Positions 4,784 through 21,675 of a DNA stretch of 64,000 nucleotides are shown in pieces (position 1 is the first letter of the stretch; each line of letters begins with the position of its first letter). The notes beneath the pieces are model-generated. The model made no database searches. It was not told the DNA's origin and saw only the letters and a list, made by a program, of their open reading frames with translations. The position numbers were made by a program, and so were the translations under genes. The DNA comes from an uncultured Acidobacteriaceae bacterium (GTDB lineage: Bacteria; Acidobacteriota; Terriglobia; Terriglobales; Acidobacteriaceae), in contig CAWDZV010000003.1 of assembly GCA_963806985.1 (NCBI GenBank), forward strand, positions 611,277-675,276, given 5' to 3'.

Positions 4784-5671
4784 ATGTCAGAGAAAATACT
4801 CAGGAATGTGGTGTCGGTGGACGTGGAAGACTATTTCCACGCCGAATCCTTTTCCGATGTGGTAGATCGCTCTCGCTGGGACAGCTATACCAGCCGAGTG
4901 GAAGCAAACACGCGCCGACTCCTGGTATTGATGGGTGGGCTGAACCTACACGCAACCTTCTTCGTTCTAGGGTGGGTTGCCGAACGCTTTCCGGCGCTTG
5001 TACGTGAGATTGCCGCCGGTGGACATGAATTGGCCTGTCATTCCTATTGGCATCGGTTGATCTATAAGCTGGAACCGGCTGAATTCAGGGAGGATACGCG
5101 GCGCGCCAAAAACACGATTGAGCAAATCTCAGGACAACCGGTCAGTGGATATCGCGCACCTACCTATTCTGTGATCGATCGTTCCGTTTGGGCGCTCGAT
5201 ATCCTGGCCGAGTTGGGATTCAGCTACGACTCCAGTATTTTCCCGATTCATCATGATCGCTATGGAATGCCGGGTGCGCCGCGGGCGCCGTTTCGTTTTC
5301 AAACGCCTTCCGGGCCGATGACTGAGTTTCCCATTACCACCTTTCGCCTGGCAGGACATAATATGCCAGTGGGGGGCGGCGGCTACCTTCGATTGCTGCC
5401 GCGGATGTACACGCGACTGGGATTGAAACGCGTGCAGGAAGAGGGATTGCCTACCGTGATCTACATACATCCCTGGGAGATCGATCCCGAACAGCCGCGA
5501 TTGCCGGGGCGTTTGAGCTCGCGTCTCCGTCACTACACCAACCTGTCGAGCACTCTCGATCGTTTCGAGAGCGTTCTGCGGGCAGGAAATTACACCAGCT
5601 TCCGCGAAAGCGGACTCGCCGATACGGCCAAGGATTTCGATTTTTATGAATGGAACAGCCACAAAAACTAA
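4784..5671 (+). CDS. Polysaccharide deacetylase family protein (PEP-CTERM/XrtA-locus subtype, DUF3473-like C-terminus)
   Basis: Begins MSEKILRNVVSVDVEDYFH, followed by ATFFVLGWVAERFP, HELACHSYWH and YIHPWEID. The ATG at 4784 was chosen over the long ORF-track extension from 4610. Confidence 0.75.
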   Translation: MSEKILRNVVSVDVEDYFHAESFSDVVDRSRWDSYTSRVEANTRRLLVLMGGLNLHATFFVLGWVAERFPALVREIAAGGHELACHSYWHRLIYKLEPAEFREDTRRAKNTIEQISGQPVSGYRAPTYSVIDRSVWALDILAELGFSYDSSIFPIHHDRYGMPGAPRAPFRFQTPSGPMTEFPITTFRLAGHNMPVGGGGYLRLLPRMYTRLGLKRVQEEGLPTVIYIHPWEIDPEQPRLPGRLSSRLRHYTNLSSTLDRFESVLRAGNYTSFRESGLADTAKDFDFYEWNSHKN

Positions 5672-6329
5672 ACCTGACGAAACCGAGCAGATCGCGAAAT
5701 ATTGGAACGACATCGCGAACGATTTCGACGCCATCTATACCGGTAAAAAGGGCCCGATTGGGCGCGGACTTGATAAGTGGCTGCGAAAAGACATTTACCA
5801 GCGTTACGAGTGGGTCATGCGCGAATCGGGTTCAGCTCCCGACTTGAGCGGCATAACGATTTGCGATGTTGGCTGCGGATCGGGGCGCTTTGTCGCGGCT
5901 CTGGCCAAGCGCGGCGCGCAGGTTACAGGCCTCGACTTTGCCCCGGAGATGCTCAGGTTGAGCCAACAACTGGTGGAAAAGGAAGGGGTCGCGGACCGCT
6001 GCAAATTTGTGCTCAGCGATGTGCTCGACTGGAAAACGGAGCAAAAGTTTGATCAGGTGATTGCTATAGGCTTCTGGGATTACGTTGCCGACCCGTTGCC
6101 GAGATTGCAAGTTATTCGCGGGATTACGAAGAAGACGTTCTTGTCGGCGTGGCCGCGCGCCGCAACTTTGCGCGCCTCCATTCGCAAAGTGCGTCTGAAG
6201 GCGGACGGCTGCCCGGTGTATTTCTTCACCCAGGCGCAGGCGGAGGACTATTTGAAACGAGCCGGTTTCCGAGTCGATTCGCACGAGATTCTGGGGCAAC
6301 TGCATTGCATACGGTCGACGGCAATCTAA
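5646..6329 (+). CDS. Class I SAM-dependent methyltransferase
   Basis: Motif I is ICDVGCGSGRF, and an acidic loop GLDFAPEM follows. It overlaps the deacetylase 3' end by 26 nt, which suggests an operon. Confidence 0.7.
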   Translation: MNGTATKTKPDETEQIAKYWNDIANDFDAIYTGKKGPIGRGLDKWLRKDIYQRYEWVMRESGSAPDLSGITICDVGCGSGRFVAALAKRGAQVTGLDFAPEMLRLSQQLVEKEGVADRCKFVLSDVLDWKTEQKFDQVIAIGFWDYVADPLPRLQVIRGITKKTFLSAWPRAATLRASIRKVRLKADGCPVYFFTQAQAEDYLKRAGFRVDSHEILGQLHCIRSTAI

Positions 6330-6351
6330 GTCAGCGCTCGGGGCAGTACTA

Positions 6352-7545
6352 ATGACGACGGCCAGGCTCGTGTTCTGGATCTCATCGGGATTTGTAGTCT
6401 ACGTCTATGTTGGTTACCCGCTGCTGCTGTGGTTCCTGCAAGCCATCTTTCGCTCATCGCCTCAGCGGCAGCCGATTGAGCCTACGGTTTCGCTGCTCGT
6501 GGCGGCCTATAACGAAGCTGCAGTCATCGCGGAGAAAATCCGCAATAGTCTGGCCCTCGACTATCCTGTGGACAAGCTGGAGATTGTGATCGCGTCGGAT
6601 GGCTCCAAGGACGCGACGGCGGAAATTGTCCGGGGATTCTGTAAAAGCGAAGCGTCAAGCGAACCCCAAAGCGAAGCCGGCGGACGGATTCGCCTTCTCG
6701 ACTACGAGAAGAACCGCGGAAAGATGGCGGTTCTGAACGACGCCGTGCGCGAATTGCGCGGAGACGTCGTGGCCTTTTCTGACGCCTCTAGCATGCTGGC
6801 TCCCGATTCTCTCCGCACCCTGGTTCAGAGCTTCGATGACGCGCGGGTGGGCGCTGCCAGCGGCGTTTATCGCCTGCTAAAGAAAGATCAAGCGCAACTT
6901 GGAGCGCAAGAGGATCTGTATTGGAAATACGAAACCTTCCTCAAAGTGCAGGAAGCCAAGCTGGGCGCCTTCACGGGCGCACATGGATCGCTTTATGCCA
7001 TCCGCCGCGCGCTTTATCCCTTTCCGCCGCTAAACACAATCAACGATGACTTCACCATTCCCATGCGGATTCTCGAACGTGGACATCGGGTGGCCTACGA
7101 GCCGGCTGCGGTGGCCTATGAAGAGGCTCATGAAATGGAAGGATTTTCCCGCCGCGTGCGCATTACCGCCGGCAACATTGAGCAGTTGCGAGAGATCAAG
7201 GGGCTGATCTGGCCACCGCGTCCGTTTGTTCTCTTCTGTTTGCTCTCGCATAAGACAGGGCGGCTGCTGGTGCCAGTGTTTATGCTGGTCGCCCTGGGAG
7301 CGAATCTTGCCCTGCGTGGACAATACCCTTACAACTGGTTGCTTCTCGGGCAAATGCTTTTTTATGGCCTCGCAGTGCTGGGCGCTATGACCAGCCTCAA
7401 GCCAAAAGTGCTCCGGCTCCCTTACTACTTCTGCATGATCAATTCGGCATTGTTTGCCTGGGTCTATCAGGCGCTGCGTCACGGGCGCGCGATTCCATCG
7501 CGAGTAGAGCTTGATCGTCTGGGAAATCACCCACCGGTGGGCTAG
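6352..7545 (+). CDS. Membrane-anchored family 2 glycosyltransferase
   Basis: Contains LLVAAYNEAAVI..LEIVIASDGSKD and a DAS (DxD-like) motif. Hydrophobic helices flank the domain at both the N- and C-terminus. Confidence 0.75.
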   Translation: MTTARLVFWISSGFVVYVYVGYPLLLWFLQAIFRSSPQRQPIEPTVSLLVAAYNEAAVIAEKIRNSLALDYPVDKLEIVIASDGSKDATAEIVRGFCKSEASSEPQSEAGGRIRLLDYEKNRGKMAVLNDAVRELRGDVVAFSDASSMLAPDSLRTLVQSFDDARVGAASGVYRLLKKDQAQLGAQEDLYWKYETFLKVQEAKLGAFTGAHGSLYAIRRALYPFPPLNTINDDFTIPMRILERGHRVAYEPAAVAYEEAHEMEGFSRRVRITAGNIEQLREIKGLIWPPRPFVLFCLLSHKTGRLLVPVFMLVALGANLALRGQYPYNWLLLGQMLFYGLAVLGAMTSLKPKVLRLPYYFCMINSALFAWVYQALRHGRAIPSRVELDRLGNHPPVG

Positions 7546-7771: not shown

Positions 7772-9694
7772 TTATTCGACTCCGGCGAGGGCCTCGTTGA
7801 GTCCGACGATGTCGGCGCCGAGATCCTTGCCGTCGCTGCCGGCATTCTTGTAGGGGCTGTTGGGTGGAAGCTCGTAGTTCCCGCCGTTGCCGTTGTTAAA
7901 GGAAGTGAATTCGGCATTGCTGGGGGTCGGACCAAACATGTTGCCGGCCGGCCAGGTTGACGATCCAAACTCGGGAGTGGTCCCAAGGAAAGCGTTGTAG
8001 TTGAACGTGAAAGTCTTGAAGCAGCTGTTCAGAATTTTGACCGGAACGTCTGAAACTGCGCAACTGGCATCGCCGCCCTCGGCCTCCCACATGGGGTGAA
8101 TGCCGGTGGTGACGATGTTGTTGGTGAAGACGAATCCATACATCTCCGGGTTCGGCTTGTTGTTACCCGTGAACATGAAGCCGCCGGTGACATCTGCGAA
8201 GCCGGTAATATGATTGATGGTGATTGTATTTATGGGATTCGTTGGCCAGTTGTTCGCCAGATAAAACAGCCTGCCCGTACCGTTATAATTGTCGCTACTG
8301 ATATCGTCCATGACGATGTCGTGAATGCTCCAGCGAGTTCCTGCCGCGGCATAGTATTTTTCTTTGCTCGACCCATGGCTTTCAAGTGGAGTCGCCATTA
8401 CGATGCCGCCTCCGGCATGGATCACATGCGTGTACCGGATCGTCACGTCGGTAACCACACAAATTGGACACATGGGAGCATTGGTTTGACTGGGCTGGTT
8501 GATGGGAGTCAGGACGATGGCAAAGCCTCTCTGGCTGAAACCTCCCCAGACGTTTTCCATGAGGTTGGCTTCCGCCAGAACGCGTGAGGCGTTCTTAAGC
8601 TCCAAGTGATTCTTGACAATGAACGGATACCCTGCATACCCGCCCTGGAAGGGCTCACTTCCTGGCATCCATTGCCATGGTTTGAAGAAGTGATTGGAAT
8701 CGATGGTGATGTCGGTTGGAGTCGTGGTGGCTCCGCCGCCGCCGAACAGAATCGCTTCGCCCGATGCCTCGAGGAAGTTGTCCTCGATCAGATAGGGGCC
8801 GTCTTGGTGATCGCCGGTACCACCGCTCACTGCGTGCGCATCTGTGCATGCACCTTTAATGGAGGTGCAGTGAAGATCATTGAGGTAGGAATCCACGACG
8901 GCTACATAGTTTGAGCCGGCGAGATTGAAACCGGTCTTGGTGTCATCGAGCGCCACGCCGTGCACCCAGCTTCGATCGACAACGAGGTATTGGGCAGTGC
9001 CTTTTTGCTCGATCGAGATGAGGGTTGGCGAGGCTTTGACCCCGACCGGTCTGGTTATCTCCAGCCCGAGCAGACGATAGTGATTAGCTCCCGATTCGAA
9101 GATCACCGGGCCGTCGGCGAGTCCTGAAACCACAAGCTTCGCCAGTACATTCTGCGGTTGGTTGCAGGCATATTGCGGACGTCCCACGAGCGAAGCGACT
9201 CCCGCATAGCAGGGCGTCAAGCGCTGACCTTCGGGCGGCAGACTGGCGTCAGCAGAGCTGGTGCGAACGATGATCCAGTGATCGTTGTCGCAGTTCTTGG
9301 CGGGAAACTTGAATACTCCCGAAAACGTCGCCCCAGCCTGCAGTTCAATGGTGTCGCCGCACAGCGCGTTATTCAAGGCCGTTTGCAGACTGCCGCCGGC
9401 ATTGACGCTGATGATGGAGCCGGGAGCCGGTGTATCGGCCATCGAACTAGCAACCGTCGCGATCGGCAATTGCGCCGGACCATCGTAACCGCTGCTGCTG
9501 GTGCCGCCGTTGTTGTTGGTGTCAGTCCCTTGCGAATAGATATCCGTTTCGCGTATCGCAGTTCCGTGCACCGCCGCCGCGGAAAGAGCGGGCAGCAGCG
9601 CGACCGTCAGAAGGATTAGAAAAGTAAGACGCTGCAGGAACGCAGCAGAAAATCTGGAATAGTTCCTTATAAGTACAATTTCCGAAGCAAACAT
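7772..9694 (-). CDS. Secreted right-handed parallel beta-helix repeat protein (possible glycan lyase/hydrolase/epimerase)
   Basis: 640 aa with a signal peptide (LLTVALLPALSAAAVHG). Repeated G/N-rich beta-helix-like segments are present. No catalytic family was recognised. Confidence 0.5.
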   Translation of the reverse strand: MFASEIVLIRNYSRFSAAFLQRLTFLILLTVALLPALSAAAVHGTAIRETDIYSQGTDTNNNGGTSSSGYDGPAQLPIATVASSMADTPAPGSIISVNAGGSLQTALNNALCGDTIELQAGATFSGVFKFPAKNCDNDHWIIVRTSSADASLPPEGQRLTPCYAGVASLVGRPQYACNQPQNVLAKLVVSGLADGPVIFESGANHYRLLGLEITRPVGVKASPTLISIEQKGTAQYLVVDRSWVHGVALDDTKTGFNLAGSNYVAVVDSYLNDLHCTSIKGACTDAHAVSGGTGDHQDGPYLIEDNFLEASGEAILFGGGGATTTPTDITIDSNHFFKPWQWMPGSEPFQGGYAGYPFIVKNHLELKNASRVLAEANLMENVWGGFSQRGFAIVLTPINQPSQTNAPMCPICVVTDVTIRYTHVIHAGGGIVMATPLESHGSSKEKYYAAAGTRWSIHDIVMDDISSDNYNGTGRLFYLANNWPTNPINTITINHITGFADVTGGFMFTGNNKPNPEMYGFVFTNNIVTTGIHPMWEAEGGDASCAVSDVPVKILNSCFKTFTFNYNAFLGTTPEFGSSTWPAGNMFGPTPSNAEFTSFNNGNGGNYELPPNSPYKNAGSDGKDLGADIVGLNEALAGVE

Positions 9695-10042: not shown

Positions 10043-10867
10043 TCAAGCTTCTTTATCGGCGCCTACGGTTTGCGTGTGGCGGTCGAGCATGGCGAGCAGA
10101 GGAGCGCGCAAAAAGGGGCTTCCCGCCAGCAAGCCGGAGATCAGGGGATTTTTCTGGTTGCAGCGCAATGCAGAATGGTCGAGTTTCAGCACCCAGCCTC
10201 CGGCGCTTTCGACGAGGGCCGCGCCAGCGGCAACGTCCCACTCATTTTTCGGAACCAGGGTGAAGGTGAGATCGGCACGACCGGCAGCGACGAGTCCTAG
10301 TTTGTAGGCGACAGAACCCATGGGGCGAATGTTGAATTCCGCGGACTCGAACTGCTTCCATTCTCCGCGCTTCACCTCGCTGCGGCTGGCGAGCACGAGC
10401 GCGCGGTGCAAATCTTTGCGCTGGCTCGGCTGTGCGGGCTGTCCGTTGTAGGTTACACCGGTATCACGCGAGCCGAGGATGAGTTCGTCGGTTGCGGGAT
10501 TGCAAATTCCGCCGGCGATCGGAATTCCGTTCTCGACCATCGCGATGGAAACGCAAAATTCGGGTATGCCCTGGACGAACTCGCGCGTGCCGTCGAGCGG
10601 GTCGACCACCCAGACACGTTGTTTGTCGAGACGAGTGAAATCGTCCACGGTCTCTTCCGAGAGCCAGCCTTCGCCGGCGCGAAGAAGCGTTTTGCGGAGA
10701 ATGTCATCGACCGCGCGGTCGGCTCCGGTGACCGGATCGTGCCCGACCTTGTATTCGGCTTCGATCGCGCCGGGAGTGAAGCGGTTCAGAACCGCGCGGG
10801 CCGCTTCGAGGGCGGCATGAATGCGTTCAAGAATTTCTGCAGATGAGGTCACTATGATGTTCTCCAC
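10043..10867 (-). CDS. cysQ: Inositol monophosphatase-family phosphatase, probably 3'(2'),5'-bisphosphate nucleotidase (PAP phosphatase)
   Basis: Carries IMPase motifs WVVDPLDGT and WDVAAG and has a GTG start. The CysQ assignment rests on its position beside the PAPS synthase and sulfotransferases. Confidence 0.6.
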   Translation of the reverse strand: MENIIVTSSAEILERIHAALEAARAVLNRFTPGAIEAEYKVGHDPVTGADRAVDDILRKTLLRAGEGWLSEETVDDFTRLDKQRVWVVDPLDGTREFVQGIPEFCVSIAMVENGIPIAGGICNPATDELILGSRDTGVTYNGQPAQPSQRKDLHRALVLASRSEVKRGEWKQFESAEFNIRPMGSVAYKLGLVAAGRADLTFTLVPKNEWDVAAGAALVESAGGWVLKLDHSALRCNQKNPLISGLLAGSPFLRAPLLAMLDRHTQTVGADKEA

Positions 10868-10970: not shown

Positions 10971-11741
10971 TTACACCCACAGCATGCGCGCTCCGGTGAT
11001 CAGCAAAATTGTGCACAAGATTCGACGCAGCCAGAGTACTGGAACGCGCGTCGTCAAATAGGAACCAAGCATGCCGCCGGGGATCGAACCGAGCAGCAAA
11101 GCGCCGACCAGATGACCGTCGACGTTGCCTGCACGCCAATGCAACAGGCTGGTCATGCCGGTGAGAAGCACGGCGTGGGCAATGTCGGTGCCGACCATGA
11201 TCCTGGGTGGAAACGAATAAAACAAAAGAAGCAACATCATGATGATGCTGCCGGAACCAACCGAAGTGATACCGACCAGAAATCCGCCCGCCAATCCAAT
11301 CACAGCCATGAAGGCAAAAGACTGCATCGTGGGCTGGCGTCCGACGAGATGGTCTTCGATCCGCTTTTGGAAGAGAAGCAGAGCGGGAATGATAACCAGC
11401 AGCAAGCCGACGGCAGACTTGATGAAATCGTTGACGCCCGCGCCATGGACCTGGCGCAGATGCACCAGAAAAGTGACGCCGAAATAAGAGCCGGGAATGC
11501 TGCCGATGGCGAGCGCCACAACGACTTTTCTACGCACCGTGCCTTTGCGCAAGTGGATGAGGCTGGCGGGAATTTTGGTGAAGAAGTTACACAGGGCATC
11601 GCTGCCGACGGCAATGATGGCGGGCACATGCAGTCCAAAGATGAGCATGGGCAGCAGCAATACGCCGCCCCCCAGACCTGTCAACCCGATCAGCGTTCCG
11701 ACTGTGAAGCCGATCAGCACTTTTAGCAGCAAGAAGTCCAT
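10971..11741 (-). CDS. TauE/SafE (DUF81) family anion permease
   Basis: 256-aa polytopic membrane protein. Its two halves have Gly-rich helices (GLTGLGGGVLLLP, GITSVGSGSIIMM) typical of the family. Confidence 0.65.
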   Translation of the reverse strand: MDFLLLKVLIGFTVGTLIGLTGLGGGVLLLPMLIFGLHVPAIIAVGSDALCNFFTKIPASLIHLRKGTVRRKVVVALAIGSIPGSYFGVTFLVHLRQVHGAGVNDFIKSAVGLLLVIIPALLLFQKRIEDHLVGRQPTMQSFAFMAVIGLAGGFLVGITSVGSGSIIMMLLLLFYSFPPRIMVGTDIAHAVLLTGMTSLLHWRAGNVDGHLVGALLLGSIPGGMLGSYLTTRVPVLWLRRILCTILLITGARMLWV

Positions 11742-12025: not shown

Positions 12026-13903
12026 CTAGCCGTTGCCGTTGGCTGCGACAAAGCCCTCGCGTTCCAGGTGCAAAATAATGGTCTGCGCCGCCTCCTCGGG
12101 ACTCAACTTGGCAGTGTCAATCACCACCTCGGCGTCGGTGGGCGCCTCGTAGGGGTCGGAAATGCCGGTGAATTCCTTTACGATGCCGGCGCGCGCCTTG
12201 GCGTACAGGCCTTTGCGGTCGCGCTGTTCACAGACTTCGATCGAAGTCGCCGCGTGCACGAGGATAAAGCCGCCGAAAGGTTCAATCATCTGCCGCACGG
12301 CTTGCCGCGTCGCCGCATAAGGAGCGATCGGTGCGCAGATCGCGATACCGCCGTTCTTAGTGATTTCGGAGGCGACATAGCCGATGCGGCGAATGTTGAT
12401 GTCGCGATGTTCCTTTGAGAAGCCCAATTCCGACGACAGGTTCTTGCGCACCAGGTCGCCATCGAGCAGCGTGACCGGGCGTCCACCCATTTCCAGGAAT
12501 TTCGTGATCAAAGCGTTGGCGATGGTGGACTTGCCTGAGCCTGAAAGCCCGGTGAAGAAGATCGTGACGCCTTGTTTGTGCCGTGGCGGATAACTGCGGC
12601 GCAATTCCTGCACCACTTCGGGATAAGTGAACCACGCAGGGATGTCGCGGCCTTCGTTCAAGCGCTTCCGCAGTTCGGTACCCGAGATGTCGAGCACCTT
12701 GGCGCCCGGCGGCACTTCATCGGCCGGAACGTAGCGGTCTTCATTCTGCAGATACATCATCATCTGGAAGGGAACCATCTTTAAGCCCGTTTCGGCTTCG
12801 TGCTTCTTGAAGAGTTCCTGCGCGTCATAGGGGCCGTAGAAGTTCTTGCCGTCGGTATCTTTTCCGGGTCCGGCATGATCGCGACCGACGATGAAATGGG
12901 TGCAGCCATGATTCTTGCGGATCAAGCCGTGCCACAGCGCTTCGCGCGGGCCGCCCATGCGCATGGCCAGAGGCAGCATGGAAAGTTTGACGGTGCCGTG
13001 CGGATATTTCGCGAGCAGCAGTTCGTAGCAGCGCGTGCGGACAAAATAATCCACGTCGCCGGGCTTGGTCATGCCGACCGACGGATGGATGAGCAAATTG
13101 GCCTCGACTTGCTTGGCGGCGCGCATGGTCAGTTCGACGTGCGCGCGATGCATGGGATTGCGTGTCTGGAAAGCTACGACGGTGGTCCAGCCCAAACGTC
13201 CGAATTCGGCGCGCAAATCGGCGGGGGTGAGGCGCAGCGCGCGGAAGTCGTAATGGGATGGAGCCTGCAATTCTTCAATGGTCCCACCCACGTACCAGGG
13301 GTTCGATTTGTTGATGGCGTAGTCAGCGCCTGGGTGCGCGGCGCTGGTAGAACCAAACACGCACTGGGCTTCGACCTTCCGGTCAGGCTGCCACACATCT
13401 TCGACGCTAAGGACGGCGAGCATGACGCCTTCGGGATCGCGCAGCGCGATCTTGCTCGATCCGGGCGTGAGCTTCTTGGCTAAATCTTCGCTGACGTCGA
13501 GAGTGATCGGCATGGGCCACAGAGTCCCGTTGGCGAGCCGCATGTTGTGGCACACGCCCTCATAATCGGCGCGGTTCATAAACCCGCGCAGCGGAGAAAA
13601 GCCACCGCTCATCAGCAATTCCAGATCGCAAAGCTGCCGGGCGCTCAGGTCCCATGAGGGCCAGTCTTTCGAGTGCACCTTTAACTCCGCGGCGCGTGCG
13701 GCCGGCACTTGCAGTTGGACAAGCTCTCCCCCATGGGGGGCAATCAGATGGCTGCTTGAGGCGGTCAAGTCCTTATTCCTCCAGGTGTTTACGGCGGTGG
13801 GCACTTCGCTTTTAACTTCCTCGCTCTTAACTTCTTCGCTTTTAACTTCAAGGTTTACTTCAAATTTATGCTTCTGCGGCGTACCAGTATCTTTGGGACT
13901 CAT
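12026..13903 (-). CDS. sat/cysC: Bifunctional sulfate adenylyltransferase / adenylylsulfate kinase (PAPS synthase)
   Basis: ATP sulfurylase motifs QTRNPMHRAH and HPSVGMTKPGD are followed by an APS kinase P-loop FFTGLSGSGKSTIA. The N-terminus carries a 15-nt tandem repeat encoding EVKSEEVKSEEVKSE. Confidence 0.85.
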   Translation of the reverse strand: MSPKDTGTPQKHKFEVNLEVKSEEVKSEEVKSEVPTAVNTWRNKDLTASSSHLIAPHGGELVQLQVPAARAAELKVHSKDWPSWDLSARQLCDLELLMSGGFSPLRGFMNRADYEGVCHNMRLANGTLWPMPITLDVSEDLAKKLTPGSSKIALRDPEGVMLAVLSVEDVWQPDRKVEAQCVFGSTSAAHPGADYAINKSNPWYVGGTIEELQAPSHYDFRALRLTPADLRAEFGRLGWTTVVAFQTRNPMHRAHVELTMRAAKQVEANLLIHPSVGMTKPGDVDYFVRTRCYELLLAKYPHGTVKLSMLPLAMRMGGPREALWHGLIRKNHGCTHFIVGRDHAGPGKDTDGKNFYGPYDAQELFKKHEAETGLKMVPFQMMMYLQNEDRYVPADEVPPGAKVLDISGTELRKRLNEGRDIPAWFTYPEVVQELRRSYPPRHKQGVTIFFTGLSGSGKSTIANALITKFLEMGGRPVTLLDGDLVRKNLSSELGFSKEHRDINIRRIGYVASEITKNGGIAICAPIAPYAATRQAVRQMIEPFGGFILVHAATSIEVCEQRDRKGLYAKARAGIVKEFTGISDPYEAPTDAEVVIDTAKLSPEEAAQTIILHLEREGFVAANGNG

Positions 13904-14600
13904 CCCATGATTCCTTCCTCACCCGTGGACGCGTGGAGATTTTGAGGGGCCGGTCCGATAGGCGAACTACTTTCAAGTTGGACAACAAACGTTGGACTCC
14001 AACCAATAAAAAATCCGTGTCTTGATTTGAGGGAGCAATTCGACTTCCGTATAACGGCAGAGAGGTGTTTGTAAGGCATTGAAGCCATTTAACAATCCTG
14101 TTTACGGAAGCTTTTCGTTGCGTGCAATCTGGGTCGAAGTGAAAAAAGTTGCGCTATTCCACCCTGACAGGGAAATAAAGATGCAAATCCTACTGACTGA
14201 TCGCCCGGATGAAAAAACCCCCATAACGCTTATATTCTGAAACCGTAAGCAGCTCGATTCTAGCAGTTAGCCAATCAGGCAGCAGCATCGGCCGATGGAA
14301 TAGCCAATCATAAGTAACTGCTCGCGGATTTGGGCGGTAGGATGTTGCGCTGTTATAGCGGATTTTGTTTTCGATTTTAATAGCGCGTAGCGGGTGCAAA
14401 ATGGAGAAATAAGTTGGTTAGGCAGATGGCTCATTTTCCTGCACCAGAGTTACTTTCGGAACCCGAGAAGCGCAAAAACCCTGTGCTACAATTTGGTTCT
14501 CCTGCAAAGATTTAGTCGAGAACTTAGCGAAGCCGGTGCGGAAAAAAAGCCAATCGAAGATTAGCCAATTCGAGGCTAGCGAATCCCACGTTTAAATCTT

Positions 14601-15965
14601 ATGGCGAGCAAGAAGATTGTCATTATCGGGGCGGGACCGACCGGACTCGGTGCGGCCTATCGTCTCCACGAACTGGGCTACGATAACTGGGTTCTTTACG
14701 AGAAATCGGATGACGTCGGGGGCCATGCTACCTCGCATGTAGACAAGCACGGGTTTGTCTGGGACGAGGGCGGGCACGTCATCTTTTCGCACTATCCTTA
14801 TTTTGATCGGCTGATCGACAAAGTGCTGGGCAAAGAGGTTCACGAGCGCATTCGCGAAAGCTGGATCGTAAAGGGCGAATCGTGGGTCCCGTATCCTTTT
14901 CAGAGCAATCTGCGCTACCTGCCGAAAGAAGTTCAGGTCAGTTGCCTGATTGGAGCGGCCAAAGCGGCATCTAATGGAAGCGGACGTGAAGCGGGGAACT
15001 TTCGCGACTGGATTCTGGCCACGATGGGCGAGGGCATCGCGGAAGAATTCATGTTTCCCTACAACTCGAAGGTCTGGACGACCCCGCTCGAACAGATGTC
15101 GAAGACCTGGATCGCGGAGCGCGTGGCGGCGATAGATTTCAAACGACTGCTGGAAAACGTTCTCTATGAACGCGACGACGTGGCGTGGGGGCCGAACAGC
15201 AAATTCAAGTTTCCGCTGCATGGTGGAACCGGCGAAATCTACCGCCGCATAGCCGCATTCTTCACCAGGAAGATACAGCCGGGAAAGCAGTTGGCGGAAG
15301 TTGACCTGGCGCAACGCCGGATCTCGTTCGCCGATGGCACAGGCGACAACTACGATGTGCTGATCTCAACCGCGCCCCTGGATCTGCTCACGAAGATGAT
15401 CAAACCGACGGATAACCGGCTACTGGATGCTGCCCAGGGTCTGGAGCACAATAATCTGCTCGTGGTCGGCCTCGGCTTGAAGAAGAAGATCGAGACCGGG
15501 CGGTGCTGGATTTACTTCACCGACGCGCAGATGCCCTGCTATCGCGCCACCTACTTTTCACACTACTCACCCAACAACGTGCCGAACGGCGATATCGAGC
15601 ACTACAGTTCACTGATGTGCGAGATGTCGTTCCCTGTGGGAGAAACGCCCGACCCGGAAAAGGTGCTGGATCAGGTAACGACCGAACTGATTCGGACGCA
15701 TATGCTGGAAGAGTCGGATCGTGGCCGTATCGTTTCCCGCTATCACCGGACGGTTGGTTACTCGTATCCGATTCCCACGCTCGGGCGCGATCGCGCGCTT
15801 GAGGTGCTGCAACCGGCGCTACTGGAAAAGGGCATTTATTCGCGCGGACGTTTTGGCGCCTGGCGATATGAAATTGGAAATATGGACCACTCGGTGCTGA
15901 TGGGTGTGGAAGCGGTCAATCACATCGTGGCGGGTGAGAAGGAGCTGGTTTTTCACAGTTCGTAA
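14601..15965 (+). CDS. UDP-galactopyranose mutase, eukaryote-type flavoenzyme
   Basis: Motifs are IVIIGAGPTGLGAA, GGHVIFSHYPYFD, WVPYPFQSN, WIAERVAA, WGPNSKFKFPLHGGTG, CWIYF..YRATYFSHYSPNN and RGRFGAWRYEIGNMDHSVLMGVEAVNHIV. From memory, these blocks are collinear with fungal/protozoan UGM. Confidence 0.8.
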   Translation: MASKKIVIIGAGPTGLGAAYRLHELGYDNWVLYEKSDDVGGHATSHVDKHGFVWDEGGHVIFSHYPYFDRLIDKVLGKEVHERIRESWIVKGESWVPYPFQSNLRYLPKEVQVSCLIGAAKAASNGSGREAGNFRDWILATMGEGIAEEFMFPYNSKVWTTPLEQMSKTWIAERVAAIDFKRLLENVLYERDDVAWGPNSKFKFPLHGGTGEIYRRIAAFFTRKIQPGKQLAEVDLAQRRISFADGTGDNYDVLISTAPLDLLTKMIKPTDNRLLDAAQGLEHNNLLVVGLGLKKKIETGRCWIYFTDAQMPCYRATYFSHYSPNNVPNGDIEHYSSLMCEMSFPVGETPDPEKVLDQVTTELIRTHMLEESDRGRIVSRYHRTVGYSYPIPTLGRDRALEVLQPALLEKGIYSRGRFGAWRYEIGNMDHSVLMGVEAVNHIVAGEKELVFHSS

Positions 15966-16016
15966 ACATGGTTCTCTTAGCATAAGGAGCCGTGAAGGAG
16001 CACGCTTTTTTGCGAG

Positions 16017-16164: not shown

Positions 16165-17163
16165 ATGGAGTTTGTGGCGACAACCTCGACCAATCCGGCA
16201 CCTAAGGTCAGCGTGATCATCCCCAGCTATAAGACCGCTGATCTGATCGCGGCTTGCCTCGATTCCGTCTTTGCGCAGACCTATTCGGATTTCGAGGCGA
16301 TCGTCGTCAACGACGGCTCTCCGGATACGCCCCAGCTGGAAAAGGCGCTGCAGCCCTACATCTCCCGAGAAAAAGAGCGCCTCGTCTACATCAAACAGGA
16401 GAACAAGCGCGCCGCTGCCGCGCGTAATAACGCCATTCGGCAGGCTCGCGGCGAGTTCGTCGCCTTTCTTGACAGCGATGACAGTTGGTATCCGAATCAC
16501 CTGGCGGCGCAGATGCAAATGATCGCCGACGATCCGTCGCTCGATCTGGTCTATGCCAATGCTCTGCTGGTTGGCGATCCGGCGAATGAGCGGCCGTTTA
16601 TGGATAAGTGCCCGTCTCATGGGCAGGCTACCTTCGAAGCTTTGATTGTGGAGCGCTGCCAGATTCCGATTTCAACCGTGGTCGCTCGCAAGCGCAGTTT
16701 GATGGATGCGGGGTTGTTCGATGAAAAGCTCGCGCGCTGCGACGATTACGATATGTGGGTGCGTACTGCATTCAGCGGCGCGAAAATCGGCTATGGGCGA
16801 GCGCTTCAGGCCCGCCTGTTTATTGGCCGGCCGGGCTCTCTCAGCGTATCCCGCGCCAAGATGGCGGAAGCTTACTGGTGTATTCTGGAGAAGTTCCAGC
16901 GGACTTTGCCGCTGCAAGATGTTGATCGCGCGGTGGTCGAAAAGCGCGCCGCCGAGATTCACGCCCGCTATTTGCTTGAAGAGGGCAAATGCAAGCTGGA
17001 AGAACGCCAGTTTGACAAGGCGCGGGAGTTGATTGCCGAGGCCAACGGCTTTTTGCACAGCGCCGCGCTGAGTCTGGCCGTCGTCGGCTTGGGCATCGCG
17101 CCCGGCGCTACCACCAAGATGATGTCTTTCTGGAGTTGGATTCGGCACGGAGCCACGGCGTGA
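16165..17163 (+). CDS. Family 2 glycosyltransferase
   Basis: Contains VSVIIPSYKTADLIAACLDSVFAQTYSDFEAIVVNDGSPD and the FLDSDD DxD motif. Confidence 0.8.
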   Translation: MEFVATTSTNPAPKVSVIIPSYKTADLIAACLDSVFAQTYSDFEAIVVNDGSPDTPQLEKALQPYISREKERLVYIKQENKRAAAARNNAIRQARGEFVAFLDSDDSWYPNHLAAQMQMIADDPSLDLVYANALLVGDPANERPFMDKCPSHGQATFEALIVERCQIPISTVVARKRSLMDAGLFDEKLARCDDYDMWVRTAFSGAKIGYGRALQARLFIGRPGSLSVSRAKMAEAYWCILEKFQRTLPLQDVDRAVVEKRAAEIHARYLLEEGKCKLEERQFDKARELIAEANGFLHSAALSLAVVGLGIAPGATTKMMSFWSWIRHGATA

Positions 17164-17226
17164 TCGGCTTGCATGGCAAACTGATGCGCAGGGCGGGTTG
17201 GGGTGGGATATTCGGGATTGGGCACA

Positions 17227-18084
17227 ATGATTAAGCGTTTGATCGCAGGAGGAAAATATTTTTTCGGGTTGCATCCGCCCGGCCGCAATGTGCAGGTTTT
17301 TCCCGACGACGTTTTTCTTGTTTCGTATCCCAAGTCGGGCAATACCTGGACGCGGTTTCTGATTGCCAACCTGGTCTACCCGGAAAGGAATCCCGATTTT
17401 TCAAATATTAACGAATTAGTGCCCGACCCGGAGGCGATGGCGAAGAGGGACCTGGAGTGCGCGACGCGCCCTCGCCTGCTCAAAAGCCATCAATACTTCG
17501 ATCCCCGGTATCCGAAAGTGATCTATATCGTTCGCGATCCGCGCGACGTCGTGCTTTCGGAGTTTTACTTCGATATTAAACGGCGGGCCATCCCAGACGA
17601 TTTTCCGCTGCCGGAATTTGTAGCACGGTTTGTTCGCGGGGAGGTGAGCCACCAGTCTGGAACGTGGTTCGAAAATGCGGCTTCGTGGTTTTATACGCGT
17701 CGCGGTGATTCTCGATTTTTGCTGGTGAAATACGAGGCGCTGCAGTCGCAGGCCATGGACGAGATGGAAAGAATCGCAAGTTTTCTCGGGATTTCAACCG
17801 ACCAGGAACGGCTTGCCTTCGCTATCAAGCAGAGTTCCGCGGATCGAATGCGTGAACTGGAAAAGAAGCAGGCGCATCTGTGGTCTTCGACGCGGGAGAC
17901 TCGAAAAGACAAGCCGTTTGTCCGCTCCGCCAAGTCAGGAGGCTGGAAAACCGAGTTATCGGAGTCGAGCGTCGCGGAAATTGAATCGGCCTGGAGCGGA
18001 CTGATGCGCGATATGGGCTATGAATTGGCCGGGTCTAGCCTGGTGGGCGCGAGGCGGGTTCATTCGGGACTGGAGGATTTGTAA
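17227..18084 (+). CDS. PAPS-dependent sulfotransferase (paralog 1)
   Basis: Has the 5'-PSB motif YPKSGNTWTRF and the 3'-PB motif RDPRDVVLSEF. ATG 17227 is preferred over GTG 17203. Confidence 0.8.
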   Translation: MIKRLIAGGKYFFGLHPPGRNVQVFPDDVFLVSYPKSGNTWTRFLIANLVYPERNPDFSNINELVPDPEAMAKRDLECATRPRLLKSHQYFDPRYPKVIYIVRDPRDVVLSEFYFDIKRRAIPDDFPLPEFVARFVRGEVSHQSGTWFENAASWFYTRRGDSRFLLVKYEALQSQAMDEMERIASFLGISTDQERLAFAIKQSSADRMRELEKKQAHLWSSTRETRKDKPFVRSAKSGGWKTELSESSVAEIESAWSGLMRDMGYELAGSSLVGARRVHSGLEDL

Positions 18085-18175
18085 TTGGTGATTTTTAATT
18101 GGTAATTTGAAAATCGCGATTGAAAACCACTAGCGAAGGGGTTGCAATTACAAATTACAAATTACCAATTGCAAA
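18077..18175. repeat. ATTTGTAATTGGTAATTTG / CAAATTACCAATTACAAAT palindromic element, copy 1
   Basis: Imperfect inverted arms at 18077-18114 and 18142-18175. The element covers the stop of sulfotransferase 1 and ends at the SD of sulfotransferase 2. Confidence 0.7.
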
Positions 18176-18188
18176 TGAGGGTTGGAAG

Positions 18189-19061
18189 ATGATCAAGCAC
18201 TTAGTGGCTGGGATACAACGCGGACTTGGGCTGCACCGGCCCGCGCGCAGCCTCCTCATTCTTCCGGATGATATTTTTCTGGTTTCCTTTCCGAAATCGG
18301 GCAATACCTGGACGCGCTTTCTCCTTGCCAATCTCAGATTTCCGGAACAGCCCGCGACCTTTGAGAACATCAATCGGTTGATTCCAGATCCTGAGGGTAC
18401 GGCGAAAAGGGATTTCGAACGCATGCCGCGGCCACGCATTATCAAGAGTCATGAGTGCTTCGATCCTCGCTATCCACGCGTGGTTTACATCGTGCGCGAT
18501 CCGCGCGATGTTGTGGTTTCGCAATACCACTATCATCGCAAGCTTAGAAAAATCGAAGACGATTCGCCCATCGAGAAATTTGTTACGCGCTTTCTTGCTG
18601 GCGAAACCTGTCCGCACGGGTCGTGGGGACAAAACATCGCTACCTGGCTGTATACGAGCGAGGGAAGTCCCCGGTTTCTTTTGCTGCGTTACGAAGATCT
18701 GGTCGCCGATACCGCCCGCGAACTGGGCAAAGTCGTAGAGTTTCTGCATCTCACGGCCGGCCCCGAATTGATTGCTCGAGCGGTGGAGCGAAGCTCGGCC
18801 GATAGCATGCGGAAACTTGAAAAGAAGCAGCCGGACAAGAATGAATTGATGAAAGGCTCGCGCAAGGACCTTTCGTTTATACGGGCTGCCGGCTCTGGCG
18901 GATGGCGTAAGGATTTGCCCGCATCCGAGGCTGCCAGAATCGAGGTGGCATGGGGACCGCTGATGCAACGTCTGGGATATGAGTTGAGTTCAGCTATTTC
19001 TGCCGAAGCGCGAGACGGTGATACGTTCGGAGTGCTCAGCGGCAGCGGTAGACATTTGTAA
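18189..19061 (+). CDS. PAPS-dependent sulfotransferase (paralog 2)
   Basis: Motifs are FPKSGNTWTRF and RDPRDVVVSQY. The ATG at 18189 is preceded by gaggg. The ORF-track extension from 18120 translates the repeat element. Confidence 0.8.
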   Translation: MIKHLVAGIQRGLGLHRPARSLLILPDDIFLVSFPKSGNTWTRFLLANLRFPEQPATFENINRLIPDPEGTAKRDFERMPRPRIIKSHECFDPRYPRVVYIVRDPRDVVVSQYHYHRKLRKIEDDSPIEKFVTRFLAGETCPHGSWGQNIATWLYTSEGSPRFLLLRYEDLVADTARELGKVVEFLHLTAGPELIARAVERSSADSMRKLEKKQPDKNELMKGSRKDLSFIRAAGSGGWRKDLPASEAARIEVAWGPLMQRLGYELSSAISAEARDGDTFGVLSGSGRHL

Positions 19062-19140
19062 TTTGCAATTTGTAATTGGTAATTTGAGATCAAAAGCAAA
19101 GGCGTTCAAATTACCAACTACAAATCGCAAATTACCAATT
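19054..19140. repeat. ATTTGTAATTGGTAATTTG palindromic element, copy 2
   Basis: Arms at 19054-19087 and 19106-19140 are about 34 bp and near-complementary, with an 18-nt loop. It sits between sulfotransferases 2 and 3. Confidence 0.75.
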
Positions 19141-19144
19141 CATC

Positions 19145-20005
19145 ATGCTGGCCCACGTCAAATACGCCGTGAAGTATCTCCTGGGACGCGATCAGGCCGG
19201 GAATGATTTCACTGTTTTTCCCGACGACACCTTTCTCGTGTCGTATCCGAAGTCGGGTAATACATGGGTCCGTTTCCTGCTGGCGAATTTGATCTATCCC
19301 AACGAGACTGTGGGTTTCGCCAATATCAACCGACTCCTGCCCGCGCCGGGGGTTTCGTCCAAGCGATTTCTGAAGGGTCTGCCCCGGCCGCGCATTTTAA
19401 AGAGTCACGAGCCGTTTGACGTTCGATTTCGGAAGGTTATCTACCTGGTCCGCGATCCGCGCGACGTTGCGGTCTCCGAGTATCACTTCGACTTGAAGAA
19501 GCGCTATATCGAGCCGGATGTCACTCTAGAACAATTCGTCGAGCGCTTCATCAAGGGCACAACTTCAGGCTACGGTTCGTGGTGGGAACACACGGCGAGT
19601 TGGATTGGCGCGCGGCACGGTAATCCGGCCTTTCTTTTGGTTCGTTATGAAGACCTGCTCTCAGAGCCCGTCAGCGAAACTGGCAAGATTGCTGAATTCC
19701 TCGGAATTCAGGCCGGACCGGAGCGTCTTGGGGCAGCGGTGCGACGAAGCTCCGCGGATCGCATGCGCAAGCTCGAAAAACAGCAGGCCGACCAGTGGAC
19801 GGGAACCAAGAATACGCGCAAAGAAATTCCCTTTGTCCGCGCTGCGAAATCGGGCGGATGGAAGGAAACTCTGCCTCAACCTTGCGTGCAGGAGATTGAA
19901 ATTGCGTGGGCTCCGCTTTTGAATTTTCTTGGCTACTCGCTGCAGACGCCGGAATTGGACAACAAAACTGTGCCATCGTGGGTCCGGACGGGTCAGCCAC
20001 TCTAA
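19145..20005 (+). CDS. PAPS-dependent sulfotransferase (paralog 3)
   Basis: Motifs are YPKSGNTWVRF and RDPRDVAVSEY. It is collinear with paralogs 1 and 2. Confidence 0.8.
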   Translation: MLAHVKYAVKYLLGRDQAGNDFTVFPDDTFLVSYPKSGNTWVRFLLANLIYPNETVGFANINRLLPAPGVSSKRFLKGLPRPRILKSHEPFDVRFRKVIYLVRDPRDVAVSEYHFDLKKRYIEPDVTLEQFVERFIKGTTSGYGSWWEHTASWIGARHGNPAFLLVRYEDLLSEPVSETGKIAEFLGIQAGPERLGAAVRRSSADRMRKLEKQQADQWTGTKNTRKEIPFVRAAKSGGWKETLPQPCVQEIEIAWAPLLNFLGYSLQTPELDNKTVPSWVRTGQPL

Positions 20006-20109
20006 TGGACGTCTTAATAAACGTCGGCGCCATCATGTTCCAAGTGCAGGGAAGAGCTATCTGCTCCCGATGAATTACTTCCTGAGTTGGGTTCAATGAG
20101 TTGCTTGCC

Positions 20110-21675
20110 ATGAGCACCAACAAACGGCAAATCATGAAGAATGTCGGCTCCAGTTGGTTCTCGCTGGGGGTTGATGTCGTTGTCGGCTTCTTGCTGTACC
20201 CCTTCATCCTGCACAAACTGGGCGATACGGCTTCCGGCATCTGGGTTTTGATCTTCTCGATTACCGGCTACTACGGCCTGTTCGATCTCGGAATTCGTTC
20301 CTCGGTGGTTCGCTACGTTTCGAAATTTACCGCCGTCGACGATATTGAAGACCTGGCCAAGCTGATCAATACTAGCCTTTTCAGCTACAGCTGCATCGGT
20401 GTTCTGAGTTTGATGGTCACCGGGCTTCTCGCGGCCTATGTCGACAATCTATTCAAAATTCCGGCAGGATTCCATTCCACTGCTCGCCTGTTGCTGTGGA
20501 TGGTCGGGGCCGCGATTGCACTCGGCTTCCCCCTGGGCGTAGTCGGCGGTTTCCTGGATGGGCTGCAGAAGTTCTACGTCAACAACTGGACGAGCGTTGC
20601 GGGTAATGCTGTTCGCGTAGTTCTGATCGTGACTGCTCTTACCCACGGTAAGGGATTACTCACCGTGGCGGCGATCACGGTTGTTCTTCCCATCTTTAAC
20701 TCGCTGGTGCGGGGAGCTATCGCCTTCCGCATTCATCCCGTTCCCTTGGGGATGAAATACGTGGACCGCAAGACCTTCCGCCTTATTGCGAACTATAGCG
20801 GGGTCACGCTGATCATCATGATCGCGACCCAGCTCAAGTTTAAGACTGACAACATCGTGATTGGCAGCATGATCTCGGCGGCCGCCGTTACTTACTTCAC
20901 CATCGGCTCGCGGATCGTGAATTACACGCAGCAGGTGGTGATGGCGCTGGCGCAAAACTTTCTTCCTTTGGCCAGCGAGTCTGAGGCGACCGGAAAAATG
21001 GACCGCCTGCGAAAAGTTTTCGTGGCTGGAAACCGCTTGTGCGCCTTCACTTGTTTCCCCATCACGGCGACGCTGCTGATTTTGGGCAAGTCGGTGATCG
21101 AAGTGTGGGTGGGGAAGAGATATATCGCGACGAGCTACCCGGTGCTTGTGATTCTGATTATCCCGGCCACGCTGATGTGGGCGCAGGCGGCGTCGGGACG
21201 CGTGCTCTTTGGAATCAGCAAACACAAGACCTGGGCGTTCGTAACGCTGGCTGAGGGTATTGCCAACCTTGTGCTTAGCATCATTTTGGTGCGTCCGTAT
21301 GGAATCGAGGGCGACGCTTATGGCACGGCCATACCGCTCGCTTGCAGCATGATTCTTTTCATGCCGGGGCATTTGTGCAAGCAACTTGGAATTCGCGTGC
21401 GAACCTACTTGCGCGAAGCGTACACCCTGCCAATTCTCATTACAGTGCCTATGGTGCTCGTGCTTCTCTTGCTGCAACGCTGGTTCATCCCGCACCATTA
21501 TTTCGAATTGGCCTTGCAACTCCTGATCGCCGGGGCGGTCTACGGGTTGGGATTGCTTTGGGTGGTGTTGACGAAGCGGGCTCTGCGTGTTGGCGAGCTT
21601 GCGCCAGAGGAAAATCAAGTTGCAGCGGAGATCGGCCCTCCTGAAGTGATCGAAACCTATCAGCCGGGAGGATAA
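20110..21675 (+). CDS. Polysaccharide biosynthesis protein, Wzx-like MOP-family flippase
   Basis: About 520 aa with roughly 12-14 hydrophobic helices. The N-terminus (KNVGSSWFSLGVDVVVGFLLYPFILHKLG) is typical of oligosaccharide flippases. Confidence 0.7.
   Translation: MSTNKRQIMKNVGSSWFSLGVDVVVGFLLYPFILHKLGDTASGIWVLIFSITGYYGLFDLGIRSSVVRYVSKFTAVDDIEDLAKLINTSLFSYSCIGVLSLMVTGLLAAYVDNLFKIPAGFHSTARLLLWMVGAAIALGFPLGVVGGFLDGLQKFYVNNWTSVAGNAVRVVLIVTALTHGKGLLTVAAITVVLPIFNSLVRGAIAFRIHPVPLGMKYVDRKTFRLIANYSGVTLIIMIATQLKFKTDNIVIGSMISAAAVTYFTIGSRIVNYTQQVVMALAQNFLPLASESEATGKMDRLRKVFVAGNRLCAFTCFPITATLLILGKSVIEVWVGKRYIATSYPVLVILIIPATLMWAQAASGRVLFGISKHKTWAFVTLAEGIANLVLSIILVRPYGIEGDAYGTAIPLACSMILFMPGHLCKQLGIRVRTYLREAYTLPILITVPMVLVLLLLQRWFIPHHYFELALQLLIAGAVYGLGLLWVVLTKRALRVGELAPEENQVAAEIGPPEVIETYQPGG

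Follow-up and report, generated by a model that had tools for sequence, protein, structure and literature searches.

Among bacteria, sulfated polysaccharides are still stated to be only or almost only cyanobacterial (PMC8205485, 2021; PMC13390465, 2026). The nearest described system to the one considered here is the xss (synechan) cluster of Synechocystis sp. PCC 6803 (Maeda et al. 2021, PMC8205485). Our subject is a chromosomal locus at 4.6-21.7 kb of a 64-kb window (the whole stretch of DNA that was analysed, from contig CAWDZV010000003.1) of an uncultured Terriglobales (Acidobacteriota) bacterium, which probably builds a sulfated, galactofuranose (Galf)-containing cell-surface glycan via a Wzx-dependent, lipid-linked route. 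The xss cluster resembles it as a Wzx/Wzy-type cluster with sulfotransferases among the glycosyltransferase (GT) genes, a presumed cytoplasmic sulfation of a lipid-linked unit, and an export component encoded elsewhere (PMC8205485). However, xss has eight GTs, a Wzy and a polysaccharide co-polymerase (PCP), and its description mentions no gene for the synthesis of 3′-phosphoadenosine 5′-phosphosulfate (PAPS), for a phosphatase of 3′-phosphoadenosine 5′-phosphate (PAP), for a sulfate permease or for a UDP-galactopyranose mutase (UGM) (PMC8205485). Compared by description, the locus in the window has one conserved GT, three sulfotransferases of the Sulfotransfer_1 family (ST1, ST2 and ST3), its own triad of sulfate-activation genes, a UGM and a putative beta-helix enzyme, is without Wzy and PCP, and belongs to the Acidobacteriota of acid peat and soil.

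In rhizobia, a dedicated supply of PAPS serves a secreted or surface glycoconjugate, the acceptor in Nod sulfation being a lipo-chito-oligosaccharide; NodPQ is of the CysDN-CysC type, and NodH belongs to a different sulfotransferase family. To our knowledge, rhizobial Nod sulfation involves no UGM, Wzx, TauE or CysQ-like gene. What NodH and NodPQ (and LpsS; mentioned in PMC8205485) have in common with the present locus is the linkage of an ATP sulfurylase/APS kinase copy (APS, adenosine 5′-phosphosulfate) to a glycan sulfotransferase. Sulfotransferases are likewise found inside Wzx/Wzy-type or GT-rich exopolysaccharide (EPS) clusters in Actinoplanes missouriensis (wps-1; PMC13390465) and Pontiella sulfatireligans (PMC7356697), the products of which are predicted or partly shown to be sulfated. 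In contrast to the locus in the window, their sulfotransferases are of the heparan-sulfate/Gal-GlcNAc type (PF13469), neither a PAPS module nor a UGM has been reported for them, and the clusters come from one strain each, whereas the window locus has been kept across dozens of species-level genomes. For none of the sulfated-EPS clusters compared does the description include built-in genes for PAPS synthesis, recycling and a permease, a UGM, or a member of this beta-helix family. The enzymology is conventional; the novelty lies in the combination of genes, in the phylum and in how broadly the locus is conserved. Full-text literature searches found no link between Acidobacteria and sulfotransferases, PAPS or sulfated glycans.

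Gene content and conservation of the sulfation core

The gene inventory was compiled from the listing of open reading frames (ORFs) and from Pfam and NCBIfam profile searches, in which the approximately 40 longest ORFs of the window were scanned. The features of the locus are:

4811..5671 (ORF open from 4610), + strand, XrtA-type polysaccharide deacetylase (TIGR03006, PF01522, PF11959)
5646..6329, + strand, S-adenosylmethionine-dependent methyltransferase (Methyltransf_31, _25, _11)
6352..7545, + strand, GT2a, membrane-anchored GT2 glycosyltransferase (PF00535, PF13641)
7772..9694, - strand, right-handed beta-helix protein, membrane-anchored or secreted, 640 amino acids (AlphaFold model and Foldseek)
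10043..10867, - strand, IMPase-family phosphatase, putative PAP phosphatase (PF00459, triad context)
10971..11741, - strand, TauE/SafE (TSUP) anion permease (PF01925)
12026..13903, - strand, bifunctional Sat/CysC, ATP sulfurylase/APS kinase (NF004040)
14449..14492, + strand, conserved promoter-like block (alignment of 11 loci; putative function)
14601..15965, + strand, UGM of the long, eukaryote-like type, 454 amino acids (homology to PDB 4dsg)
16165..17163, + strand, GT2b, GT2 glycosyltransferase (PF00535, 102 bits)
17203..18084, + strand, sulfotransferase ST1 (PF00685, 129 bits)
18120..19061, + strand, sulfotransferase ST2 (PF00685, 131 bits)
19145..20005, + strand, sulfotransferase ST3 (PF00685, 144 bits)
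20101..21675, + strand, Wzx-like MOP-family flippase (PF01943, PF13440)
21805..23661, - strand, secreted phosphoesterase with DUF11 domain, membership uncertain (PF04185)

According to the ORF listing there are three transcriptional blocks. Block A (+) comprises the deacetylase, the methyltransferase and GT2a; block B (-) comprises Sat/CysC, TauE, the IMPase-family phosphatase and the beta-helix protein; and block C (+) comprises UGM, GT2b, ST1, ST2, ST3 and Wzx, i.e., six co-directional genes separated by gaps of 36-200 bp. Blocks B and C are divergent, with an intergenic region of 697 bp between Sat/CysC and UGM. The profile searches recovered each class of gene that the initial annotation had named for this 17-kb block, near the positions it had given. 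The other genes of the 64-kb window have no relation to the locus; they encode a peptide exporter, a kinase, a sigma-54 activator and housekeeping functions.

A scan of a genome collection with the UGM gave 436 relatives, of which the best 80 loci were mapped with the window proteins by tblastn; the counts given here as fractions of 51 refer to the species-level loci among those 80 that had full 10-kb flanks. Every one of the best 80 relatives belongs to an uncultured member of the Acidobacteriota, with Terriglobales, Acidobacteriaceae or 'Ca. Sulfotelmatobacter' as its label, and the sources are palsa, bog, SPRUCE peat and Danish soils. The UGM sequence itself is also present on a metagenome contig of 854 kb in ENA. 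All seven core functions were present in 22/51 loci. The comparative search for the same gene set that had been proposed with the initial annotation thus finds the arrangement in dozens of species-level genomes and, given this recurrence, the co-occurrence is far beyond chance. The 17-kb block had been taken to be a single polysaccharide locus. This holds for the UGM-GT2b-sulfotransferase-Wzx operon and the PAPS triad, which are conserved, but not for the deacetylase, the methyltransferase and GT2a, which are lineage-specific accessories (found in only 4, 5 and 7 of the 51 loci, respectively).

All three sulfotransferases match PF00685 (Sulfotransfer_1) with 129-144 bits, against a cutoff of 22. 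In ST1 the motifs are PKSGNTW (the 5′-phosphosulfate-binding motif), KSH (with the catalytic His) and RSAKSGGWK (the 3′-phosphate-binding motif), and reading of the three sequences revealed that PKSGNTW, KSH and (R/K)xAxSGGW(K/R) are intact in all of them. A hydrophobicity check of the three sequences found no signal peptide or transmembrane segment. At least one sulfotransferase adjoins UGM in 50/51 loci, and 27/51 loci have three. Orthologues with at least 65% identity were found for ST1 in 22/51 loci, for ST2 in 30/51 and for ST3 in 24/51, with all three together in 20. Pairwise identity among ST1, ST2 and ST3 is about 51%, whereas their orthologues reach 65-92%, which indicates that they are old paralogues, retained for distinct jobs. 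For ST3, more than 120 protein clusters at 77-94% identity are known from metagenomes, and those that are named are labelled Terriglobales. Judged from the operon context with UGM, GT2 and Wzx only, the acceptor of ST1-3 would be a glycan.

A further sulfotransferase gene, encoding a Sulfotransfer_3 protein of 341 amino acids, lies beside a gene for a 627-amino-acid, 37%-identical paralogue of the beta-helix protein; the pair is on the same contig (L084:1299-4422), some 0.8-3.9 kb left of the point where the window begins, and the sulfation system therefore extends past the window. The description of the locus as a self-contained cassette is accordingly supported as to its own PAPS supply but not wholly right as to its limits. 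Among the relatives, a Sulfotransfer_3 enzyme occurs in 8 loci, i.e., in loci without the PAPS triad and in more distant loci.

The triad consists of Sat/CysC, TauE and the phosphatase. Sat/CysC scored 928.5 bits with NF004040 (cutoff 669), and its PUA_2, ATP-sulfurylase and APS_kinase domains were all matched, so that the ATP sulfurylase and the APS kinase expected of a PAPS-dependent glycan sulfation system are both present. With 81-93% identity it is better conserved than any other gene of the region, and it lies within 10 kb of UGM in 35/51 loci. TauE (PF01925, 155 bits; 8 hydrophobic segments) lies within this distance in 35/51 loci as well, and the phosphatase in 33/51. Sulfate uptake by members of the TauE family has been shown or proposed: a Pseudomonas homologue was shown to function by complementation, and CysZ of C. 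glutamicum belongs to the same family (PMC11535334, PMC5840216). TauE is therefore a candidate importer of sulfate that would feed PAPS synthesis, the inward direction of transport being the probable one. The phosphatase had been proposed as CysQ. Its membership of the IMPase family stands (PF00459, 164 bits), but the sequence does not single out CysQ: TIGR01331 (CysQ) gave 132 bits against a cutoff of 229, the scores for HisN and SuhB were similar, and sequence comparison with the PDB placed the protein equally close to SuhB/IMPase and CysQ structures. From its place in the triad, it would be a PAP phosphatase with a CysQ-like role.

The order Sat/CysC-TauE-phosphatase, on one strand, was found in 36/36 loci, and at least one gene of the triad lies within 10 kb of UGM in 39/51. 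Relative to UGM, the triad is found upstream in divergent orientation (24 loci), upstream in the same orientation (4 loci) or on the far side of Wzx, downstream (7 loci). The linkage has thus persisted through rearrangement, which argues for functional coupling rather than inherited synteny.

The initial call of a UDP-galactopyranose mutase proved right over the full length of the protein, with one correction, namely that the enzyme is of the long, eukaryote-like type and has no match to Pfam GLF. Pfam gives Amino_oxidase and NAD_binding_8 only, NCBIfam a generic FAD oxidoreductase, and at least one public annotation carries this generic label also. Against PDB 4dsg (UGM of T. cruzi) the match has E=1.5e-111 over residues 3-444, and against Aspergillus UGMs (3ute among them) about 1e-103. 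Alignment with the solved UGMs revealed the conserved motifs IIGAGPTG, GGHVIFSH and RGRFGAWRYExGNxDHS. By homology to characterised UGMs, the protein encoded at 14601-15965 is a UGM, with the predicted activity of supplying UDP-Galf. It resembles the UGMs of T. cruzi and Aspergillus fumigatus (4dsg, 3ute) in end-to-end homology, in the flavin-binding N-terminus, in the GGH loop and in the C-terminal RxxxxWRYExGNxDH; it differs from them in length (about 454 amino acids in the bacterium, against 484-513 in the eukaryotes) and in belonging to a mostly unannotated prokaryotic branch.

In a library clustered at 50% identity, at least 965 clusters match the long type at E<=1e-30, many of them of about 450 amino acids, which we read as the bacterial length for the family. 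This abundance weakens the notion that a eukaryote-type UGM in a bacterium is a rare inter-domain transfer. Taxonomy for these clusters is nearly nil, with one Actinomycetota metagenome-assembled genome (MAG) among them. As the long type is seen by annotation only as a generic oxidoreductase, the capacity of bacteria to make Galf may be under-called. GT2b is present in 45/51 loci and lies directly downstream of UGM (less than 400 bp) in 39/51; it is a candidate galactofuranosyltransferase, a donor specificity suggested by this adjacency only.

The flippase, Wzx, matches PF01943 with 49.6 bits (cutoff 28.2) and also PF13440, and has 12 hydrophobic segments, corresponding to about 12 transmembrane segments; with the NF041503 WZX_like model it scored 50.6 bits, under the cutoff of 300. 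It was found in 39/51 loci and is the fastest-evolving gene of the cluster (27-90% identity). Fast evolution is typical of substrate-specific flippases.

Accessory genes, regulatory sequences and neighbours

The beta-helix protein has an N-terminal helix at residues 17-38 and no sequence match in Pfam, NCBIfam or the PDB. A first AlphaFold model of the 640 amino acids, based on 26 close homologues, was poor (predicted local distance difference test, pLDDT, 51). Addition of a 37%-identical paralogue subfamily to the alignment (42 sequences) improved the AlphaFold2 model, to a pLDDT of 80.9 and a predicted template modelling score (pTM) of 0.82. The Foldseek matches of this model are exclusively beta-helix carbohydrate enzymes (GH136, PL6, PL9, RbmB and tailspikes), at TM-scores of only 0.3-0.5 (at most 0.66 when normalised to the shorter target) and 9-13% identity, and no catalytic residues could be mapped. 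The initial call of a beta-helix protein was thus borne out by the model, which matches only right-handed beta-helix glycanases and lyases, although no sequence family does. Like RbmB of Vibrio cholerae, the PL6 and PL9 lyases and GH136, the modelled protein is a right-handed parallel beta-helix, extracytoplasmic, with its gene in a polysaccharide locus; unlike them, it has low TM-scores and identities in this comparison and is without a Pfam family. It belongs to an uncharacterised Terriglobales family and may act on the polymer outside the cytoplasm, as a glycanase, a lyase or a modifying enzyme. A member lies within 10 kb of UGM in 19/51 loci, often as two tandem copies, and in the source genome the family is paired with sulfation genes twice (in the window and beyond its left edge).

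The deacetylase scored 350.6 bits with TIGR03006, 'XrtA system polysaccharide deacetylase' (cutoff 276.2), matched Polysacc_deac_1 and DUF3473, and is identical to the product of a 286-amino-acid gene call on record. It would be a cytoplasmic, accessory enzyme of the type found in XrtA/PEP-CTERM loci. In the window there is no exosortase-like polytopic protein that could be XrtA, and no PEP-CTERM-like C-terminus among the ORFs of at least 80 amino acids. The methyltransferase matched no NCBIfam equivalog above cutoff. GT2a has one N-terminal and at least one C-terminal hydrophobic segment and weak PgaC/NodC-like matches, far under the cutoffs.

In the loci without the PAPS triad and in the more distant loci, other decoration genes are found (an AMP-ligase, MBOAT, extra deacetylases and GT4s). 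Such shifting of decoration genes is the pattern typical of variable surface-glycan loci. The secreted PF04185 phosphoesterase, of the phospholipase C/acid phosphatase family, is transcribed towards Wzx in the window, and 21/51 loci have a homologue no more than 10 kb from UGM.

At 40-4508 of the window are a large Big_1/invasin-like surface protein (40-2574) and a secreted protein of 535 amino acids (2901-4508, - strand) without family matches, which by eye resembles a beta-propeller. Homologues of the two lie beside the UGM locus in about 10/51 relatives; a role as partners of the glycan at the cell surface, or as its carriers, is conceivable. In the ENA assembly of this region (L084:7482-7958; L001:3170-5094), unlike in the window, an rve integrase fragment is called near the Big_1 gene, the beta-helix gene is split into three calls and the Big_1 gene into two. 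These differences are probably long-read frameshift errors rather than biology.

About 110 nucleotides upstream of the UGM start is a block made up of GTTACTTTCGGAAC (14449-14462), a spacer of about 22 nucleotides and an extended -10-like element, TGCTACAAT (14484-14492). It has a single match in the window, and its columns are near-invariant across 11 loci, the flanks of which are otherwise unalignable. The block has the look of an extended -10 promoter accompanied by an upstream site. A promoter of the sigma-54 type was considered for the UGM operon and rejected: TGG..TGC at 14427 is wrongly spaced, and the GGAAC box has no GG-N10-GC register across the loci. In a consensus scan for sigma-70 promoters at 4.3-24 kb, promoter-like sites were no commoner than in shuffled sequences; terminator-like sites in the same interval numbered 34, against 22±4.8 in shuffles, and none of them marks an operon boundary. 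A scan of the whole window with Rfam found nothing inside the locus, and a tRNA scan found none in the 64 kb. Elsewhere in the window there are a small SRP RNA (66.7 bits) and two tandem Acido-Lenti-1 sRNAs (46.5 and 50.1 bits), at 57286-57383 and 58823-58934, consistent with an acidobacterial origin.

Downstream of the locus, at 24845-33721, lie genes for an HlyD-family adaptor, a C39-peptidase ABC exporter (920 amino acids), a second ABC exporter (736 amino acids; weak matches to NHLP-type bacteriocin export, far under cutoff) and a Ser/Thr kinase with PD40 repeats. Beyond them, at 35942-37044 on the + strand, are five tandem tiny genes (36029-36079, 36149-36199, 36733-36783, 36861-36911 and 36994-37044), each with an AAGGAG ribosome-binding site and encoding a 16-amino-acid peptide, MKVKTNMKAGSALWGS or the variants MKVKTNARAGNALWGG and MKVKTNTKAGNALWGS; the copies differ mainly by synonymous changes. 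Two near-perfect sigma-54 promoters precede groups of tiny genes (TTGGCACACAGCTTGCAT at about 35948 and TTGGCACACCGCATGCAT at about 36655), and the neighbouring divergent gene (33818-35770) encodes a sigma-54 activator that has FHA and GAF domains. The arrangement resembles a small-peptide system under sigma-54 control, the 16-amino-acid products of which may be exported by the ABC exporters about 5 kb away. The sigma-54 promoter repeats at 35942 and 36649 begin with the same eight bases as GTTACTTTCGGAAC, namely GTTACTTT, which may be a coincidence or a common upstream element.

Proposed route and alternative readings

In the proposed route, TauE would bring in sulfate, which Sat/CysC would convert with ATP to APS and then to PAPS, while UGM would convert UDP-galactopyranose to UDP-Galf. 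GT2b (here also GT2a) would add sugars, including Galf, to a repeat unit linked to undecaprenyl-diphosphate, the primer enzyme being encoded elsewhere. The cytoplasmic ST1-3 would place sulfate esters at distinct positions, the deacetylase and the methyltransferase would, in this lineage, modify the unit further, and the IMPase-family phosphatase would clear PAP, an inhibitory by-product. Wzx would flip the completed unit outward, polymerisation or ligation and export would fall to genes outside the window, and the membrane-anchored beta-helix enzyme would trim or process the polymer beyond the cytoplasm. The support for this scheme comes from gene identities established by homology, from the integrity of the motifs and from conserved linkage; the substrates, the direction of TauE transport, the sequence of events and the kind of polymer that results (EPS, capsule or O-antigen) are proposals derived from them. 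Every in-silico test supports a glycan locus with its own PAPS supply, from which a sulfated Galf product would be expected.

Several points weigh against this reading. An initiating transferase (WbaP/WecA type) had no Pfam match among the ORFs scanned in the 64 kb; no Wzy polymerase or WaaL ligase is present in the window; and PCP and outer-membrane polysaccharide export (OPX) proteins (Wzc/Wza) had no match in the window or in the recurrent neighbour families that were read or scanned. By profile scans and a check of polytopic proteins, the absence of Wzy, a priming transferase and Wza/Wzc reported in the initial annotation holds across all 64 kb, where the only polytopic membrane proteins are TauE, Wzx and the two ABC exporters. 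The sole GT conserved with the core is GT2b, which is few for a heteropolysaccharide. No PAPS gene lies within 10 kb in 12/51 loci, so that PAPS evidently can come from a distant copy. The CysQ assignment of the phosphatase misses the NCBIfam cutoff, and the closest solved relatives of ST1-3 are the cytosolic small-molecule sulfotransferases (SULTs) and the glycopeptide-antibiotic sulfotransferases, not carbohydrate sulfotransferases, so that the acceptor cannot be read from the sulfotransferase sequence. The comparison was anchored on UGM and covers relatives of at least 75% identity only, all carriers found are MAGs, and the case for a sulfated Galf glycan is a genomic one.

The same enzymology could serve another destination, i.e., decoration of the O-antigen or core of lipopolysaccharide (LPS), a capsule, or a protein or S-layer glycan, instead of a released EPS, and we regard this as a possibility to be taken seriously, if not as the expected outcome. 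Where related loci have a gene of the polymerase/ligase type, it belongs to the Wzy_C (O-antigen ligase/polymerase) family, as is the case inside two of them (L019 and L038); genes for GT-C/PMT_2 transferases, five in all, occur in four related loci. Neither the window nor the recurrent neighbours include genes of the Wza/Wzc type, and large Ig-like surface proteins (Big_1, Big_3_5) recur beside the locus. Conversely, the XrtA-type deacetylase is tied by its NCBIfam definition to the EPS loci of PEP-CTERM organisms, and the sequence does not discriminate between these fates. Of the product first predicted, a sulfated Galf polymer is supported in silico; an exopolysaccharide is one form that it may take, and an O-antigen, a capsule or another lipid-linked glycoconjugate would fit equally. 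It is unlikely, in our view, that the triad is a general sulfate-activation module (for assimilation via PAPS) and a mere neighbour, with the sulfotransferases sharing a common pool of PAPS. Such a module would suit the high conservation of Sat/CysC, as for a housekeeping gene, the loci with no triad within 10 kb, and the service of TauE homologues in assimilatory sulfate uptake (PMC11535334). However, the triad tracks the UGM-sulfotransferase operon into three relative positions, reading of the recurrent neighbour families revealed no sulfite or PAPS reductase gene, and a PAP phosphatase-like gene is needed mainly where PAPS is the sulfuryl donor.

That the sulfotransferases act on a target other than a glycan (a small molecule, a lipid, or a peptide exported by the neighbouring HlyD/C39-ABC transporter) is very unlikely, notwithstanding the cytosolic SULTs, Teg12/14 and StaL as their best structural relatives, the HlyD adaptor and C39-peptidase ABC exporter 3-9 kb downstream, and the five tiny peptide genes at 36-37 kb. 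In the relatives, the sulfotransferases lie between GT2 and Wzx, downstream of UGM and in the same direction. The model for peptide sulfation is the tyrosine-sulfation system RaxST-RaxAB-RaxPQ of Xanthomonas; a RaxST-like system was rejected here because the HlyD/C39-ABC genes are unlinked to the locus in every relative, even the closest (L004). A sulfated chito-oligosaccharide resembling a Nod factor, with GT2a as NodC, the deacetylase as NodB, the methyltransferase as NodS, a sulfotransferase as NodH and Sat/CysC as NodPQ, is so improbable that we rejected it. These enzymes all lack signal peptides, as that scheme would have it, but the NCBIfam scores that suggest it (43 bits for GT2a with NodC, 47 for the deacetylase with NodB and 25 for the methyltransferase with NodS) are far under the cutoffs of 550, 240 and 300 bits, and the deacetylase passes the XrtA-type model. 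Furthermore, a NodA-like acyltransferase is missing, the scheme leaves UGM and Wzx without a role, and its three genes are accessory, being present in only 4-7/51 loci while the sulfation core persists without them.

Significance for peat and soil Acidobacteria

In acidic soils and peat, the Acidobacteria rank among the most abundant bacteria. A tentative extension of the sulfated Galf glycan reading is that the Acidobacteria of peat and soil (Terriglobales, 'Ca. Sulfotelmatobacter' MAGs) widely make unrecognised, multiply sulfated Galf surface polymers; this, with its corollaries, is possible but doubtful at present. If it were true, the polymer would be a sulfated polyanion that keeps its charge at bog pH, where carboxylates are protonated, and could be a substantial microbial source of the ester-sulfate pool of soil and peat. 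The number of sulfotransferase paralogues would vary, in a serotype-like tailoring of the polymer, and a new family of beta-helix glycanases, tied genetically to the sulfation genes, would process it.

The three sulfotransferase paralogues, the compact UGM, the candidate Galf-transferase and the beta-helix family of putative glycan-active proteins are candidate enzymes for designer sulfated glycans. For the organisms themselves, the cassette offers a testable genetic basis for a sulfated soil matrix, for a biological share in ester-sulfate, and for a polyanion that may function at low pH and in metal binding.

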